A DNA stretch of 64,000 nucleotides. It comes from Ilumatobacteraceae bacterium (lineage in GTDB: Bacteria; Actinomycetota; Acidimicrobiia; Acidimicrobiales; Ilumatobacteraceae). The first letter of the stretch is position 1; every line of letters begins with the position of its first letter. The position numbers and the translations under genes were made by a program. Of this stretch, positions 1,959-47,510 are shown piece by piece. Location of the stretch: the NCBI GenBank assembly GCA_964203235.1, contig CAXNLE010000001.1, positions 876,069-940,068 on the forward strand, read 5' to 3'. The notes beneath the pieces are model-generated. The model was given only the letters and a program-made list of their open reading frames with translations, ran no database searches and was not told the DNA's origin.

Positions 1959-3436
1959 CTGCCAACTCAACACTTAAAACTGTAGGACTTCTTGGTGGAG
2001 GTGTAATTGGCGGCGGTTGGGCTGCGCGTTTCGTTCTAAACGGTTACGACGTAAAAATCTATGACGTTGACCCTCAGGCAAAACGAAAAATTGGTGAAGT
2101 TATGGCAAACGCCCGCCGTGCCTACGCCAAACTAACGCTCGCACCCTTACCACACGAGGGCACGATTACATTCGTTGATACTCCTGAAGATGCAGTCACT
2201 GGCGTTGACTTCGTTCAAGAGAGTGCGCCTGAACGTGTCGAACTAAAACAAGAACTACTCGCAAGAGCAAGTCGCGTAGCGCCTGCGCATGTCGTATTTG
2301 GATCATCAACTTCTGGAATTTTACCAAGTCAGTTGCAACGCGATATGACGTTTCCAGAGCGACTTGTCGTTGGTCATCCATTTAATCCGGTTTATTTATT
2401 GCCCTTAGTTGAGATATGCGGTGGCGACAAAACATCACTAGATGCTCGCGAACGTGCGCGCGAGGTATACGAATCAATTGGAATGCGACCATTGATGTTG
2501 CAAAAAGAAATAGATGGTTTCGTCGCCGATCGACTTATGGAAGCAATGTGGCGCGAAGCACTTTGGCTGATCAATGACGGCGTCGCAACAGCAGAAGAAA
2601 TAGACGATGCAATCCGTTTTGGTGCTGGTCTGCGCTGGTCATTTATGGGGACCTTCTTGGTATACCGAATCGCAGGCGGTGAAGCAGGAATGCGACACTT
2701 CATGGCGCAATTCGGACCAACTCTAAAGTGGCCGTGGACGAAACTGATGAATGTCCCGGAACTAGACGATGTATTACTTGAAAAGATTGTTTCGCAATCC
2801 GATGAACAGGCTGGAAGTCGAACAATCCGCGAACTTGAAATACTGCGTGATGATTGCCTAGTTGCGGTGATGCAAGGACTCAAACATGTCGGCTTCGGTG
2901 CAGGCGAAACTTTGGCCGCCTACGAAAGAAAATTATTCAGTGGCGCGACTGTTGCTCCAACAAATATTGAAAACCCGATCGAAGTACAACGTCGACGCAT
3001 CACAGCCGACTGGGCAGATTACAACGGTCACACCAATGACAGTCGGTACATGCAACTCTCAAGCGAAGCGTTAGATGTTTTCTTTAGATCAATTGGGTTT
3101 TCGAATGATTATCTCGCAACCGGTCGCTCGCTCTACACACTTGAAAGTCACATTAGGTATATCAACGAAAGCAAAGTCGGTGATGAAATCGTCGTAACGG
3201 CTCAAGTAATTGCGCTTGACGATAAGAAGGTTCACATGCATTCAGTGATGTCGCAGACTGACGGCACGATCGTTGCAACTGGAGAACACATTTATCTTCA
3301 TGTCGATACGAAACTTAAGAAGTCGTGCCCGATCGGCACTGAGTTACTAGTTCTACTAGAACCAATCGCCAAGGCTCATGCGAATTTATCTAGACCTGAA
3401 GGCGTAGGTCGCTTCGTAGGTCAAAGTATTAAATGA
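1955..3436 (+). CDS. lcdH: L-carnitine 3-dehydrogenase (3-hydroxyacyl-CoA dehydrogenase fold) fused to a C-terminal hotdog thioesterase domain
   Basis: 493 aa. It has an N-terminal Rossmann motif (GLLGGGVIGGGWAARF) and a 3HCDH-like core. The C-terminal ~160 aa are paralogous to the next ORF (DWADYNGHTND..YTLESHIRY vs DWVDYNNHMTE..YTVETHIVY). A GTGA overlap links it to the upstream gene. Confidence 0.7.
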   Translation: MTANSTLKTVGLLGGGVIGGGWAARFVLNGYDVKIYDVDPQAKRKIGEVMANARRAYAKLTLAPLPHEGTITFVDTPEDAVTGVDFVQESAPERVELKQELLARASRVAPAHVVFGSSTSGILPSQLQRDMTFPERLVVGHPFNPVYLLPLVEICGGDKTSLDARERAREVYESIGMRPLMLQKEIDGFVADRLMEAMWREALWLINDGVATAEEIDDAIRFGAGLRWSFMGTFLVYRIAGGEAGMRHFMAQFGPTLKWPWTKLMNVPELDDVLLEKIVSQSDEQAGSRTIRELEILRDDCLVAVMQGLKHVGFGAGETLAAYERKLFSGATVAPTNIENPIEVQRRRITADWADYNGHTNDSRYMQLSSEALDVFFRSIGFSNDYLATGRSLYTLESHIRYINESKVGDEIVVTAQVIALDDKKVHMHSVMSQTDGTIVATGEHIYLHVDTKLKKSCPIGTELLVLLEPIAKAHANLSRPEGVGRFVGQSIK

Positions 3437-9763: not shown

Positions 9764-10093
9764 ATGACTGAGATGGGTACCGATTGGATTTCAGCATGCG
9801 ATGAATCATCAATTACTAAAAGTGACGTCGCGAGATTTGACCATCTTGACGGCACATATGCAGTAGTTCGCACGTCTGATGGCGTATGCGTTGTGATGGA
9901 TGGTCTTTGCACGCACGGCAAAGCACACTTGGCAGAAGGTTTCGTTGACGGCACAACAATTGAATGCCCGAAACATAACGGACGATTTAATGTTTTGACA
10001 GGAGAGCCAGTTGCTTCACCGGTGCGTGTTGCGACAAGAGTTTACGAAACTCGAGTCAACAACTCAAAAATTGAATTTCGGCTAGCTAAATAG
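9764..10093 (+). CDS. Rieske [2Fe-2S] ferredoxin (MocE-like)
   Basis: 109 aa with Rieske ligand motifs CTHGKAH and CPKHNGRF. It starts 4 nt after the desaturase-family gene. Confidence 0.8.
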   Translation: MTEMGTDWISACDESSITKSDVARFDHLDGTYAVVRTSDGVCVVMDGLCTHGKAHLAEGFVDGTTIECPKHNGRFNVLTGEPVASPVRVATRVYETRVNNSKIEFRLAK

Positions 10094-11165
10094 CCTTTGG
10101 TTTTGTTTCGCGACCAGTGCCAAGTTTGTAACCAGGTCGACCTGCTTGCGACCACTCGCCGACAAACTTAAAAAACTCGTCTCCAAATGGGTCCACTCCG
10201 GCTAGTGGCATATTGCCACGGCGAATGGTCCAGTCGAATGGCGCTAGCTCTTCAGCGCGAGCTAAATGCTTGCGCGAACCAATCTCATCCCTCGCGTCTC
10301 CGCGCTCCCGCAGTGCGATAGCGATACGTCTGTGCAAGCGAGCGTCTTGTAAATCTTGCGTAGGCGGTAACTGAAAATCACGAACCTGAGCATCATCTAA
10401 ATCGCGCGAATTATCAAGAACCCATGAGCGCAACAAGTTGTGGTGCACCTCAGAATCAACATGAGAAAACGATCTGAACAGATCGCTTCCTGGCGTACCG
10501 TCCGCAGGGCGCACTATTTTGTCATTTTCGTCGATCCAGATTGCAGCTGGCACATTTACTAATCCATACAAGTCAGCAACGATGTGGAACTTATCTATAA
10601 GCACTGGAAACGTGAGCGTTTGTTTTGTCGCCCATTCAACAACTGCCTTCTCATCTGCATCAAGTGCGACCGCGATTATCTGCAAACCAGAATCTTGCAA
10701 TTCGTTAGAGAGTTGCTGCCAGACCGGCAGCTCGTAACGGCAGCCTCACCAAGATGACCATGCGAGCAACAATCTCTTTCTTCTATTGAAATCGCTGAAC
10801 GAAACCTGTTTGCCATGAATATCTGGCAATCTAAAATCTGGTGCATTAAGTGTCGACATAGATTTGGCCCTAGCTGGTGCCAACTCGCCCAGTGCAGCGA
10901 CTTCGTACTCTCTATCAAACAGGAGACTTTGATTCGTTAACTTCGCAAAAACTGCTAAATCAATATTGACGCCGTCTGACAACTCATCAACATTGCGCAC
11001 GGGGTAACAGATATCACCCTTACATAAACCCTCGGGCTTTAAAACCCAGCCAGTTGCTTCTTCAAAATCTGTTGAAGCCAAATCAACTCGGCCTGATCTT
11101 TGAAAGACGTCAACTGATGACACGCCCCCATCGGCTTTAACAACTAACACTGCAACCATGGTCAA
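10086..11165 (-). CDS. thioredoxin-fold redoxin (TlpA/ResA/AhpC-TSA-like) with in-frame UGA at the CxxC position; candidate selenoprotein (alternative: pseudogene)
   Basis: Track ORFs 10746..11165 and 10086..10700 are in the same frame, separated only by TGA 10746..10748 and 15 sense codons. Read-through gives ..[11 protein letters not shown][UGA][26 protein letters not shown].., which puts UGA on the first Cys of the WCxxC motif. There are no other disruptions in the 1080 nt. Confidence 0.55.
10703..10739 (-). promoter_or_regulatory. SECIS-like stem-loop 3' of the in-frame UGA
   Basis: The RNA is CGUUACGAGCUGCCGGUCUGGCAGCAACUCUCUAACG. It folds into a 6-bp apical stem (GCUGCC/GGCAGC), a GGUCU loop (10721..10725), and lower pairings GA/UC and CGUUA/UAACG. 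The loop begins 20 nt after the UGA. Confidence 0.45.
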
Positions 11166-13375: not shown

Positions 13376-14788
13376 TTACCAGTCACCAAGCATTTCTTCC
13401 AATCGTTCAACATATTGATATGGCGACAGTTCAAGAATGCTTTTTCCATATGGTTCAATATCAAATAACCCCGCCTTATACAAATTCTGAGCAAAGCAAA
13501 AATTTGACAGCGGATCATGACCAGCAAACGAGGATGTGATCTCAACTTTCGGATACCTCACATGAGTTCCTAAAAGGAAACCATCACCGATCTTCCATCC
13601 AGCCCTCTCATAAAAAGATTTCATTCCAGTGTTATAGGGCTCAACTTCCGAATAAAAATCGTATCCAAAAATTTTCAAAGACGACGGAGATTGTCTTATT
13701 AAACTTGTAAGCAGTCGCAGGCCACTCGTGACATTCGTTCGATACATTGGTAAATCTTGATTTTCTGAAAAAACCGGGGTATTTCTGACAGCAGATGAAT
13801 CTTCCTCTCCAGTAACAATCAAACGTAGGTCATCAAAATATTCATAAGAAGACAAGTTTGCCAAATCTCTTAGAGGATTTAAGCCCGGATACTGAGAGAT
13901 ATCACATCGTTTACCGAAGAGTCGTTGGTCAATCAAATATTCCGATCCAGGATATTTGATACGGGCAACGATGTCGGCTGAATCAATTTCCTCCCCATAC
14001 TCGCCATGCGCTACACCTGGTCCTACTAAGACTACTTGCTTTCCCCTGACCAGTTCATCAAATAAACGGACTGACCCGTTGTTTTCTGATTTTTTAGTAA
14101 GAGAATTCTCTACAAGGTGCCCCTCAAACCAATTCAGCGTTTCACGAAACGAACGTTGACTTTTTGAATTCTGATCAGTATTTTGCATTAGCCAATTTCT
14201 AACAAAATCAAAATTCCGGCGCTCTAGTTGTGCTTCAATCATGCGATTGACAACTGTGACACTAGGAACTGAGTTCAAACCTTCAGCGATCGAAAGATCC
14301 AGTGAATTTTCCCGAGCAAACCACGCCGCACGAAAATACCCTAGAGAAAAAAGGCCGCGAGAGAGCTGATACCAACTCGTGGCATCGAAAGTCGTGGGTA
14401 CAAGATTTTGTGTAGCAATTAATATTGAAGAAGATGTAGAAACACGATCACTTGGGTCTTGAATTGTCGCAGAAATCGCACTGCGCAATAACCTTTTATA
14501 ACCATTTGGGAAATTCGACTCAAGAAGCCCAGTAGCGACACCAAAAAGTCGTTTGCATTTCAGTGCCTTGTTAGCTCCGTAGGCTCTGTTAGAAAGGTCA
14601 AAATATTTATACGACTCTCTTTTCAATCTGTAATCAGATCTGATTAAAAGATACCTAAGAATCCAAACTGAAACAGACGCGGGCAAATAGTTGAAAACAA
14701 CTGATCGATTAATAAGAGGACGAGTTTTCGGTGGCCACTTTGAATACTTTTTCTTGAGTTTGGCGATTTCTTTTGAATTTGAACTCAC
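13376..14788 (-). CDS. hypothetical protein with GT29 (sialyltransferase)-like L and S sialylmotifs
   Basis: 470 aa. VVLVGPGVAHGEYGEEIDSADIVARIK resembles sialylmotif L (..VVGNSG..YGxEIDSHDFVxRxN). TNVTSGLRLLTSLIRQSPSSLKIFGYDFY resembles sialylmotif S (PSTGxxxxxxxLxxCDxVxxYGF). Confidence 0.45.
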   Translation of the reverse strand: MSSNSKEIAKLKKKYSKWPPKTRPLINRSVVFNYLPASVSVWILRYLLIRSDYRLKRESYKYFDLSNRAYGANKALKCKRLFGVATGLLESNFPNGYKRLLRSAISATIQDPSDRVSTSSSILIATQNLVPTTFDATSWYQLSRGLFSLGYFRAAWFARENSLDLSIAEGLNSVPSVTVVNRMIEAQLERRNFDFVRNWLMQNTDQNSKSQRSFRETLNWFEGHLVENSLTKKSENNGSVRLFDELVRGKQVVLVGPGVAHGEYGEEIDSADIVARIKYPGSEYLIDQRLFGKRCDISQYPGLNPLRDLANLSSYEYFDDLRLIVTGEEDSSAVRNTPVFSENQDLPMYRTNVTSGLRLLTSLIRQSPSSLKIFGYDFYSEVEPYNTGMKSFYERAGWKIGDGFLLGTHVRYPKVEITSSFAGHDPLSNFCFAQNLYKAGLFDIEPYGKSILELSPYQYVERLEEMLGDW

Positions 14789-30074: not shown

Positions 30075-30243
30075 AATAACTAAACCACCCTGAAACCGAA
30101 AATCTCAACCAAATTGTATATATACGACTTACGTTGATTAGTAATAAAAGAAAATGACGTGTCGCGCGACAAAAACAATCCTAGACATAGAGACTCGTTC
30201 AACTTCCACGACAGATACGGCGTTTGAGCCATATAAACCCTAG

Positions 30244-30315
30244 AGGCGACGCCGAGAATCGAACTCGGTTAAAGGGCTTTGCAGGCCCGTGCCTAAGCCA
30301 GTCGGCCACGTCGCC
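30244..30315 (-). tRNA. tRNA-Cys (GCA)
   Basis: Manual cloverleaf: GGCGACG acceptor, anticodon loop CUGCAAA, T arm CCGAG-TTCGATT-CTCGG, 3' strand CGTCGCC. CCA is not encoded. Confidence 0.9.
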
Positions 30316-40493: not shown

Positions 40494-40512
40494 AATTGCC
40501 TGTCAACCATTG

Positions 40513-40584
40513 AGCGGACGACGGGATTTGAACCCGCGACCCTCACCTTGGCAAGGTGATGCTCTACCACTGAGCCACGTCCGC
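40513..40584 (-). tRNA. tRNA-Gly (GCC)
   Basis: Manual cloverleaf: GCGGACG-TG-GCTC-AGTGGTA-GAGC-A-TCACC-TTGCCAA-GGTGA-GGGTC-GCGGG-TTCAAAT-CCCGT-CGTCCGC. Confidence 0.9.
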
Positions 40585-42546: not shown

Positions 42547-43719
42547 TTAAAGCGAATGTTTTCGCAAAAATTCAACAAGCGGTTTGCCGACTTGATCTAG
42601 ATTGATCAAAAATGCATCATGTCCATGCGGAGAATCAATTTCAACATATTCACATGATCCACCTGAATCGTTAATTATGTCACGAATCTGCTTCTGTTGA
42701 TAAGACGGATACAAAATATCACTCGAAATACCCATAGACAACACAGGTGCAGTGATTCGTGACGCAGCAGTTTGCAAACTGCCACGTCCGCGGGCGACGT
42801 CATGAAGATCCATCGCCTTACCAATAATCAAATAACTATTGGTATCAAAGCGTCGAATGAGTTTGTCGCCGTGGTGATCTAGATAGTTCTCAACTTCGAA
42901 CTTGTCCCACAATCCAAGACCGTTATAGTCGGCATTCGTATCTGCTAACTCTCGACCGAAACGATCGGTGAAGACGTTGTCACTACGAAATGTCACTTGA
43001 GCAACCATTCGCGCAATCGCCAAGCCTTGCCACGGTCCATCGCCGATTGCAGCATCGTAGTAATCACCACCACGCCACCTTGGATCAAGGCGAATAGATC
43101 TGCGCCCAATCGCCCCCCATGCAATTTGTTGTGCGGTTGCTTGGAGACACGTAGCAATCGGCACAAGAGTTCGTACGCGATGAGGAAATGTGACTCCCCA
43201 TTCGAGAACTTGCATACCGCCCATTGATCCACCGATAACACAATGCCAAACATCAATACCGAGCATGTCGCTGACACGAACTTGAGCGCGCACCATGTCG
43301 CGAACCGTGATCACTGGAAAACGTGAACCATATGGCTTGCCATCAGATGGGTGCAGCGATGCGGGCCCGGTTGAACCCTGACAACCGCCGAGCGAGTTGG
43401 TGCAAACAACAAAATATTTATCGGTGTCAATTGCGCAACCAGAACCAACAAGACCATCCCACCAACCTGGTGTTGGCTGGCCGTCTTGCGCGCTACCTGC
43501 AGCGTGTGAGTCGCCTGTCCATGCGTGGCACAACAAAATCGCATTCGACTTATCGCTATTCAACTCTCCCCAAGTTTCATACGCAATAGTCACCTGCTGC
43601 AGAGTTTTGCCGCTGTCGAGTGCAACGGGGCGATCCTTTGGAAATTCTAAAAACTTGCGAGTGCCAAAAGCTGCGCCTTCATACCATGCACCTGTCGCCG
43701 GATAATCTGTTCGCATCAT
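42547..43719 (-). CDS. metX: homoserine O-acetyltransferase
   Basis: Alpha/beta hydrolase with nucleophile elbow IGGSMGGMQ and a typical MetX N-terminus. The track start is TTG 43746; I prefer ATG 43719, preceded by AAAGGA. Confidence 0.9.
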   Translation of the reverse strand: MMRTDYPATGAWYEGAAFGTRKFLEFPKDRPVALDSGKTLQQVTIAYETWGELNSDKSNAILLCHAWTGDSHAAGSAQDGQPTPGWWDGLVGSGCAIDTDKYFVVCTNSLGGCQGSTGPASLHPSDGKPYGSRFPVITVRDMVRAQVRVSDMLGIDVWHCVIGGSMGGMQVLEWGVTFPHRVRTLVPIATCLQATAQQIAWGAIGRRSIRLDPRWRGGDYYDAAIGDGPWQGLAIARMVAQVTFRSDNVFTDRFGRELADTNADYNGLGLWDKFEVENYLDHHGDKLIRRFDTNSYLIIGKAMDLHDVARGRGSLQTAASRITAPVLSMGISSDILYPSYQQKQIRDIINDSGGSCEYVEIDSPHGHDAFLINLDQVGKPLVEFLRKHSL

Positions 43720-43799
43720 TGGTTGATCCTTTCTTGTACTAATCAAAGTAGAAGATCAAAAACTTGCGTCAGAGTTCGGCCGTTGCTCCGCAAATGCGG

Positions 43800-43885
43800 A
43801 ACCACATCCCCACCCGAAGGTGAGCTGGCACCGTGGGCTCTAAACCCCGGTTGCCGGACCAAATTGGCCACTCCTGATGCAACTT
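43800..43885 (-). promoter_or_regulatory. SAM riboswitch-like leader (SAM-I clan, SAM-IV or SAM-I/IV-like)
   Basis: The RNA is GCAUCAGGAGUGGCCAAUUUGGUCCGGCAACCGGGGUUUAGAGCCCACGGUGCCAGCUCACCUUCGGGUGGGGAUGU. It has closing helix GCAUC/GAUGU, GGCC/GGUC hairpin, the conserved CGGCAACC and GGUGCC elements, and an extra UUCG-capped hairpin. It lies in the 5' leader of metX. Confidence 0.6.
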
Positions 43886-46637: not shown

Positions 46638-47510
46638 TCACTTGGTAACGGAAAGTTCTTTGGCTGCTTTTGCTATGTCTGTCTGATATTTAAGAAGAAT
46701 ATGCAAAGTCTCTTTTGCTTCTTGGGCGTCAATCGTCTCTATCCCAAGCAACATCAAAGTTCTTGCCCAATCGAGTGTTTCGCTGACAGACGGAGCCTTC
46801 TTCAGATCAAGTTGGCGGATACTTCGAACGATGCGTGCAATTTGATCAGCCAAATTTTCACTAATATCCGGAACTTTATTCAACACAATTTCTTTTTCGC
46901 GCTCAAGATCTGGATAATCAACGTGGAGATACAAACAACGACGCTTCAGCGCTTCTGATAACTCACGAGTGTTGTTCGATGTCAAAAACACGAGTGGAAT
47001 CTGCTTGGCGGTAATTGTGCCCAACTCTGGAATCGAAACTTGGTACTCGGAAAGAATTTCGAGCAATAGCGCTTCGGTCTCAAGTTCAACACGATCAACT
47101 TCATCGATCAACAAAACCACTGGTTCTTCACTGGTGATTGCCTCAAGAAGAGGTCGAGCCAATAAAAACTCGCTACTAAAAATGTCATCATGGACTTCGC
47201 TCCAAGAATCACTATTTTTATCGGCTTGAATACGAAGCAACTGCTTCTTGTAGTTCCATTCGTAGAGTGCCTTTGATTCGTCAAGACCTTCGTAACATTG
47301 CAAGCGAATCAATCGCGCGCCAGTGAGTTCGGCGACGCTCTTGGCGAGTTGAGTCTTGCCGGTGCCTGCTGGTCCTTCAATTAAAACTGGTTTACCGAGA
47401 CGATCTGCCAAGAACACAACACCGGCGATCCCGTCGTCTGCAAGATAATTGACATTCTTAAGCCCGCTACGCACGGTAGCTACATCGTTAAATCGAGGTT
47501 TCACCCGCAC
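46638..47510 (-). CDS. MoxR-like AAA+ ATPase (CoxD-like)
   Basis: 290 aa with Walker A GPAGTGKT and Walker B VVLLIDEVDR. Confidence 0.85.
   Translation of the reverse strand: MRVKPRFNDVATVRSGLKNVNYLADDGIAGVVFLADRLGKPVLIEGPAGTGKTQLAKSVAELTGARLIRLQCYEGLDESKALYEWNYKKQLLRIQADKNSDSWSEVHDDIFSSEFLLARPLLEAITSEEPVVLLIDEVDRVELETEALLLEILSEYQVSIPELGTITAKQIPLVFLTSNNTRELSEALKRRCLYLHVDYPDLEREKEIVLNKVPDISENLADQIARIVRSIRQLDLKKAPSVSETLDWARTLMLLGIETIDAQEAKETLHILLKYQTDIAKAAKELSVTK

Follow-up and report, generated by a model that had tools for sequence, protein, structure and literature searches.

An in-frame UGA codon in a redoxin gene

Is a TGA codon that falls in the active site of a bacterial redoxin gene a stop signal, or is it read as selenocysteine (Sec)? 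The question is raised by a locus on contig CAXNLE010000001.1 (assembly GCA_964203235.1), within a stretch of 64,000 nucleotides that we analyzed as a whole and refer to below as the window. The host of the gene is a freshwater bacterium of the Acidimicrobiia (Ilumatobacteraceae/acIV). On the minus strand, a frame running from 11165 to 10086 comprises 360 codons (1080 nt) and contains a single internal stop, the TGA at 10746..10748. A list of open reading frames (ORFs) presents this frame as two pieces, 10746..11165 (139 amino acids) and 10086..10700 (204 amino acids), and gene calls in relatives likewise cut the gene into pieces of 137 and ~200 amino acids. An earlier reading of the window, made from its letters and ORF list (hereafter the original prediction), had proposed that the two ORFs form one candidate selenoprotein in which this TGA is the only interruption of 1080 nt, and our reconstruction of the frame agreed with it in this respect.

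The likely start codon is the ATG at 11159..11157, with an alternative TTG at 11165 that would add two codons, and the gene ends at a TAG (10088..10086). The complete predicted gene, at 10086..11159 on the minus strand, would encode 357 amino acids in three domains, with Sec at codon 138 (U138). The UGA codon at 10746..10748 (minus strand), read as Sec, lies in the context W-S-S-W-U-G-C-R, where the redoxin active site has its N-terminal, nucleophilic Cys. We consider it very likely that 10086..11159 is one selenoprotein gene and that its UGA is decoded as selenocysteine by means of a downstream hairpin. Pointing to this conclusion are the single reading frame, the pairing of Cys and Sec in one alignment column, the persistence of the TGA among distant relatives, purifying selection acting on both halves of the gene, a hairpin that covaries and is Sec-specific, and the fold of the protein.

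The UGA codon is conserved at a Cys position in a gene under purifying selection

Protein searches returned the closer relatives (61–97% identity) exclusively as fragments of ~200 amino acids that start after the TGA, and homologues at 41–52% identity as full-length proteins of 329–367 amino acids that aligned end to end. In these full-length homologues the UGA column was occupied by Cys without exception (88/88), within the motif W-[AS]-S-W-C-G-C-R. Alignment of homologues at this column had been suggested as a check on the original prediction, and its outcome supports the assignment.

We also scanned one genome per GTDB species, which produced 80 loci with a readable codon in 76: TGA in 67 and TGC in the remaining nine. 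The TGA carriers include metagenome-assembled genomes (MAGs) of freshwater Acidimicrobiia/Ilumatobacteraceae (acIV), to which the window is most closely related (87–90% identity), as well as other Actinomycetota, Myxococcota/'Deltaproteobacteria' and Binatia. One carrier, Actinospongicola halichondriae Hal317, is a cultured isolate. A scan of metagenomes yielded ~50 additional loci with TGA at the same codon, and the TGA was kept down to ~44% protein identity. The flanking frames were open in all loci except one, a long-read MAG (L045) in which the downstream part ends early (276 amino acids). The ratio of nonsynonymous to synonymous substitution rates (dN/dS) was 0.12–0.16 upstream of the TGA and 0.05–0.10 downstream of it, with dS ~1 or saturated even in comparisons with the nearest relatives. 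Judged by these sequence comparisons, purifying selection acts on both halves of the gene.

In one Acidimicrobiaceae MAG contig (L069), we observed two tandem paralogues, at 1773-1826 and 2998-3051, each with an in-frame TGA and an intact hairpin of the kind described next.

A covarying hairpin follows the UGA codon in Sec-encoding genes

Downstream of the UGA, in the stretch that encodes E-L-P-V-W-Q-Q, the minus strand contains a predicted core hairpin of a bacterial selenocysteine insertion sequence (bSECIS) at 10715..10731. Its 5' arm is GCUGCC (10731..10726), its loop GGUCU (10725..10721) and its 3' arm GGCAGC (10720..10715), which together make a 17-nt element with a 6-bp stem and a 5-nt loop and a folding energy of -10.1 kcal/mol. 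The hairpin starts 14 nt, and its loop 20 nt, after the UGA. The original prediction had described the same apical stem and loop at the same distance, and we recovered them at 10731..10715. The published bSECIS consensus specifies a loop of 3–9 nt, an upper stem of 4–16 bp, a G within the first two loop positions, a spacing of 16–37 nt from the UGA and an energy of at most -7.5 kcal/mol (PMC13188914). The hairpin agrees with this consensus in every item, and a hairpin that does so follows only 48 of the 2644 TGA triplets in the window (1.8%).

The evidence that selection maintains this hairpin comes from its relatives. With hairpin columns numbered from the U of the UGA as 1, RNAalifold predicted exactly one helix, unaided, from 62 Sec sequences, with columns 18–23 pairing with 29–34. 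Across this apical stem, 97.5% of cells were paired and three of the six pairs showed changes on both sides; none of 500 shuffles equalled the observed values, and controls in which the stem was slid along the alignment reached at most 65% pairing. The inner five pairs were intact in all 107 distinct Sec sequences as compared with 11 of 31 distinct Cys sequences (Fisher p = 1.4e-16, ignoring phylogeny). A further check attached to the original prediction, whether Sec homologues keep a hairpin that mutates in a compensatory manner, thus came out in its favor.

The individual pairs in the 107 Sec sequences reveal how the stem and the protein constrain each other. Pair 18-34 is G-C in 42 sequences and C-G in 49, and the other 16 comprise three standard pairs (U-A, U-G and G-U) and 13 non-pairs. 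Pair 19-33 is C-G in 103, U-A in three and G-C in one, with the Leu codon UUG accompanied by the Gln codon CAA. Pair 21-31 is G-C in 99 sequences and C-G in eight, and here a synonymous change in the Leu codon, from CUG to CUC, is always joined by a replacement of Gln (CAG) by Glu (GAG). In the loop, G25 is invariant; it is part of GU in 96 of the 107 sequences, giving a Val codon, and of GG in the rest, giving a Gly codon. The residue between Pro and Trp in P-x-W is accordingly Val or Gly in all 107 Sec forms, whereas Cys forms have mainly Ala, Gly or Ser there.

The original prediction had extended the hairpin to a 37-nt structure with lower stems GA/UC and CGUUA/UAACG. This extension did not hold up as part of the conserved element: CGUUA/UAACG was 57.7% paired across relatives, compared with 97.5% for the apical stem, and the GA/UC step, although 82.8% paired, consists of bases forced by the codons.

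The resemblance to the SECIS of E. coli fdhF, to which the original prediction had pointed, is genuine: fdhF reads GCAGGUCUGC, and 18 nt separate its GGUC loop from its UGA. Both elements lie in the coding sequence just after the UGA, share the string GGUCUG and have G-U in the loop, and the loop-to-UGA distances are similar (18 nt in fdhF, 20 nt here). They differ in that the fdhF helix is longer (~40 nt), contains a bulged U and ends in a 4-nt loop that A-U closes, whereas here only the perfect 6-bp stem and 5-nt loop are conserved, with no conserved lower helix or bulge.

At one locus of Myxococcota type (L074:2866-2919), the codon is TGC (Cys), yet the hairpin is perfect (CCUGCC-GGUCU-GGCAGG), as in its Sec-containing sisters. 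On sequence grounds this is probably a recent Sec-to-Cys conversion that has left a relic SECIS.

Alternative explanations for the in-frame TGA

Could the TGA instead be a recent nonsense mutation, from TGC or TGT, that turned a Cys-type redoxin gene into a pseudogene? This would account for the splitting of the gene by gene callers and for the TGC forms, with Cys, in related genomes. The same TGA, however, recurs in 67 species-level genomes and on ~50 metagenome contigs down to ~44% protein identity, synonymous sites are saturated while dN/dS does not exceed 0.16 on either side, and there are no extra stops or frameshifts apart from the early end in L045. This combination of a conserved TGA, saturated dS and low dN/dS is incompatible with a recent nonsense mutation, with a sequencing error and with decay into a pseudogene, and the pseudogene reading is exceedingly improbable. 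We judge a sequencing or assembly error in the window to be just as improbable: it has its a priori possibility alone in its favor, and the identical TGA codon recurs in independent assemblies from many projects and technologies. A nonsense mutation and a base-calling error were the alternatives that the original prediction had itself raised, and the conservation of the TGA across species rules them out. It had also named a pattern that would speak against it, namely TGA-bearing relatives with unconserved hairpins and decaying flanks; the relatives that we found keep the hairpin and, L045 aside, intact frames.

The UGA might also be read through without selenium, with near-cognate or suppressor decoding putting in Cys or Trp, or with UGA reassigned, and the failure to find Sec machinery in the window or in related loci fits such a view. 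On the other side, TGA is the ordinary terminator of 11 of the 46 long ORFs in the window, and so the genetic code is standard and UGA is not reassigned. Moreover, the site is a redox-active Cys column, which makes it a classic Cys/Sec pair, and the SECIS-type hairpin is kept by compensatory changes only in TGA forms, a structure that plain read-through does not need. We consider selenium-free read-through very unlikely. The output of ORF finders would equally match two real genes, one for an N-terminal protein of 137 amino acids and one for a protein of 200 amino acids made from an internal start. In that case, though, the break would fall inside the thioredoxin fold just before the active-site helix, with neither piece a complete domain; the internal start chosen by gene callers also shifts among relatives, giving fragments of 197–215 amino acids with differing first residues, and all Cys homologues are single chains. 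A pair of separate genes is, in our estimation, highly improbable.

Several observations nevertheless weigh against decoding of the UGA as Sec by way of this hairpin. The minimum free energy of a 71-nt region was no better than that of shuffled sequences (z = -0.34); with thermodynamics this unremarkable, it is the comparative data that speak for the hairpin. Rfam, searched with 10600..10850 at E up to 10, returned no SECIS family, its only two hits being matches by chance at E = 0.19 and E = 1.7; since models of bacterial SECIS elements are poor, such a negative is to be expected. The conserved peptide L-P-x-W-Q dictates part of the stem, and 11 of the 31 Cys genes can accordingly form it too; the contrast between Sec and Cys hairpins also leaves phylogeny out of account. 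Finally, searches with tblastn (E. coli SelA, SelB and SelD as queries) and ARAGORN found no selA, selB, selD or tRNA-Sec gene in the 64-kb window, as the original prediction had already noted, or in the 161 related loci (694 kb). The Sec machinery of the host genome is assumed, with 64 kb of that genome in view. Sec machinery is reported for all genomes of the Actinomarinales, another order of the same class (bioRxiv 10.64898/2026.04.03.716425), which supports this assumption indirectly.

Domain architecture and fold of the predicted selenoprotein

The predicted selenoprotein begins with an N-terminal domain of ~100 amino acids (10860..11159, minus strand), which corresponds to positions 7-100 of the NCBIfam profile NF041054 and contains a pair of Cys residues, C46 and C51 (G-L-C-K-G-D-I-C, nt 11007..11024), that is invariant in 79 sequences. 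This domain had no match in Pfam. A search of the Protein Data Bank (PDB) for similar folds, with an AlphaFold2 model of the window's own N-terminal domain (predicted local distance difference test score, pLDDT, 85.6), returned nothing significant; the best match (E = 0.29) was beta-grasp-like noise. The central domain (10509..10847, minus strand), which holds the U-G-C site, is a thioredoxin-fold redoxin domain of the AhpC-TSA/Redoxin type, similar to ResA and TlpA; Pfam places it at residues 107-219 (PF00578, 1.4e-19; PF08534, 5e-15). The C-terminal domain of ~135 amino acids (10089..10493, minus strand) contains the invariant motif D-W-T-I-R-R-G-[NS]-M-P and is helical in an AlphaFold2 model.

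The AlphaFold model of a Cys homologue with 52% identity (pLDDT 95) also comprises three domains, and PDB neighbours were found for the redoxin domain only. Foldseek matched this model to ResA (2f9s) with E = 8e-11 and a root-mean-square deviation (rmsd) of 1.5 Å. By sequence as well, the protein comes closest, among solved structures, to thiol-disulfide oxidoreductases of the ResA type (ResA 4nmu, E = 6e-16). Alignment to 4nmu and to 3kcm requires a one-residue gap, with W-C-x-x-C in ResA facing W-U-G-C here, and places the UGA column at the first Cys of the ResA CxxC, which is the nucleophile position. The original prediction was therefore right that the UGA replaces the nucleophilic Cys of a redoxin, but the motif that it gave, UxxC, has to be shortened by one residue to U-G-C.

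The redoxin domain thus resembles ResA, TlpA and StoA in its thioredoxin-like fold (rmsd 1.5-2.2 Å over 114-138 residues, for the Cys homologue), in the nucleophile position and in the Pro-containing helix downstream of it. ResA and TlpA are single-domain proteins with CxxC and either a membrane anchor or a signal peptide, as against U-G-C and two extra domains in this protein. By direct reading, the N-terminus has no visible hydrophobic stretch, and the protein, unlike ResA and TlpA, is apparently cytoplasmic. The family models for ResA, TlpA and StoA gave 77.5, 42.2 and 53.2 bits, far below their respective cut-offs of 170, 230 and 210. The peroxiredoxin motif P-x-x-x-T/S-x-x-C is absent, since U138 has Ser at -3 but Leu instead of Pro at -7, and the scores of the PrxQ and BCP models were far under their cut-offs.

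Relation to known selenoprotein families

The gene is a real selenoprotein gene of an already known kind, whose family has been among the predicted bacterial selenoproteins since 2008. The selenoproteome derived from Global Ocean Sampling (GOS) data (Zhang & Gladyshev 2008, PMC2398784) includes a 'Prx-like (UGC-containing)' family, assigned to pfam00578 and with a UGC motif, which comprised 46 Sec sequences and 855 Cys homologues and was significantly commoner in non-marine samples. A UGC-containing Prx/TlpA-like selenoprotein family also appears in a second study (PMC13188914). Like the GOS family, the protein described here is a thioredoxin-fold redoxin (PF00578/cd02966) with U-G-C, a single Sec and many Cys homologues, and the enrichment of the GOS family in non-marine samples fits a freshwater acIV host. 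From the motif, the Pfam family and the habitat, we infer that this clade, with its domain architecture, and the GOS family are the same. Literature searches on WAxxUGC, on the hairpin string and on Ilumatobacter with selenocysteine returned nothing useful.

Among curated models, the top NCBIfam match was NF041054, 'ResA-like WAxxUGC motif-containing protein' (WAxxUGC_long, equivalog), with E = 7.5e-61; a family name of this type had been mentioned in the original prediction, and it does exist. The WAxxUGC motif is present as W-S-S-W-U-G-C in the window, with Ser and not Ala at the second position, and as W-[AS]-S-W-U-G-C in relatives. The score of 206.4 bits, however, lies below the curated cut-off of 300 bits, and only positions 7-201 of the 354 in the profile were aligned. 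Ten diverse members of the clade similarly scored 213-270 bits, all under the cut-off, usually with only the first ~200 of 354 positions aligned, and positions 202-354 failed to match the C-terminal domain in 10 of 11 clade members tested. The sub-cut-off scores and the partial match indicate that the clade is a sister group whose C-terminal domain has diverged: over profile positions 7-201 it has the N-terminal domain, the redoxin domain and W-[AS]-x-x-U-G-C in common with NF041054, and it diverges after them, with the result that the curated model would not name the clade.

It is quite possible, although we stop short of calling it probable, that this clade constitutes a distinct selenoprotein subfamily that lacks a curated model and whose substrate is not yet described. 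Such a subfamily may span Acidimicrobiia, Myxococcota and Binatia and combine three parts: an N-terminal domain with a CxxxxC pair and no recognisable fold, a U-G-C redoxin domain and a DWTIRRG helical domain. If so, its SECIS would lie in codons of the active-site helix (E-L-P-V-W-Q), entangling the recoding signal with the enzyme; keeping Sec would dictate the residue in P-x-W and couple a synonymous site in a Leu codon to a Gln/Glu replacement. The locus offers a clean example of a SECIS that is embedded in, and co-evolves with, an active-site helix, next to a rare U-x-C (CxC-type) redox center.

The practical outcome is an annotation correction, not a new kind of system. Virtually all freshwater acIV/Ilumatobacteraceae MAGs have the gene split into 'hypothetical proteins' of 137 and ~200 amino acids, and many soil Actinomycetota and Myxococcota have the same split annotation; NF041054 would rescue the gene but misses the clade on score. 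With the UGA read as Sec, a conserved redox enzyme is recovered, and these abundant lake bacteria would be marked as selenium users.

A proposed mechanism for recoding and catalysis

By analogy with the established bacterial pathway, a ribosome reaching the UGA at 10746..10748 would be supplied with Sec by SelB-GTP-Sec-tRNA(Sec) bound to the 17-nt hairpin at 10731..10715. The loop, N-G-[U/G]-N-U, would present a conserved G, usually followed by U, for recognition by SelB. The fold and the Cys/Sec column suggest how the resulting enzyme could work. Sec138 would occupy the nucleophile position of a thioredoxin-fold site whose U-G-C is one residue shorter than CxxC, and its selenolate would attack an oxidized substrate, which may be a disulfide, a sulfenate or a peroxide. 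Cys140 could then resolve the adduct, forming a strained intramolecular selenenylsulfide within U-G-C, which would be re-reduced, possibly by way of the N-terminal domain and its invariant Cys46 and Cys51, or else by a reductant of the thioredoxin type.

Gene neighborhood and other features of the window

The neighbors of the gene in the window are convergent or divergent to it and encode a Rieske protein, a fatty-acid desaturase, a methyltransferase, a GDSL-like protein and a short-chain dehydrogenase/reductase (SDR). No neighboring gene is conserved across the 80 species loci, and the gene context consequently gives no clue to function or substrate. In a subclade of ~15 species loci (L025-L049), the selenoprotein gene lies between an upstream Prok-JAB/MPN gene and a downstream PALP (CysM-like) gene, with a tmRNA gene nearby (for example, L039:2584-4640 and L025:968-2506). 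This layout, which is absent from the window's own clade, is reminiscent of the actinobacterial mec-cysO-cysM sulfur-carrier cluster.

No further candidate with a redox motif emerged when we scanned the window for additional ORFs split by TGA. We rejected one such site as a second selenoprotein, the TGA at 46638..46640 (minus strand) between in-frame ORFs of 296 and 485 codons: there is an ATG 9 nt past the stop but no redox motif, and from the sequence we read the two ORFs as adjacent genes. An ORF of 470 amino acids at 13376..14788 (minus strand) had no Pfam match at E <= 0.001, and a syntenic contig (L163) carries a counterpart of 450 amino acids at the same position, also without a Pfam match. 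The only tRNA genes in the window are tRNA-Cys(GCA) at 30243..30315 and tRNA-Gly(GCC) at 40512..40584, both on the minus strand. An S-adenosylmethionine (SAM)-I/IV riboswitch aptamer (Rfam RF01725) is located at 43769..43885 (minus strand), with 47.5 bits where the gathering score is 41.1, and directly downstream of it is an ORF of 402 codons (42547..43755, minus strand).

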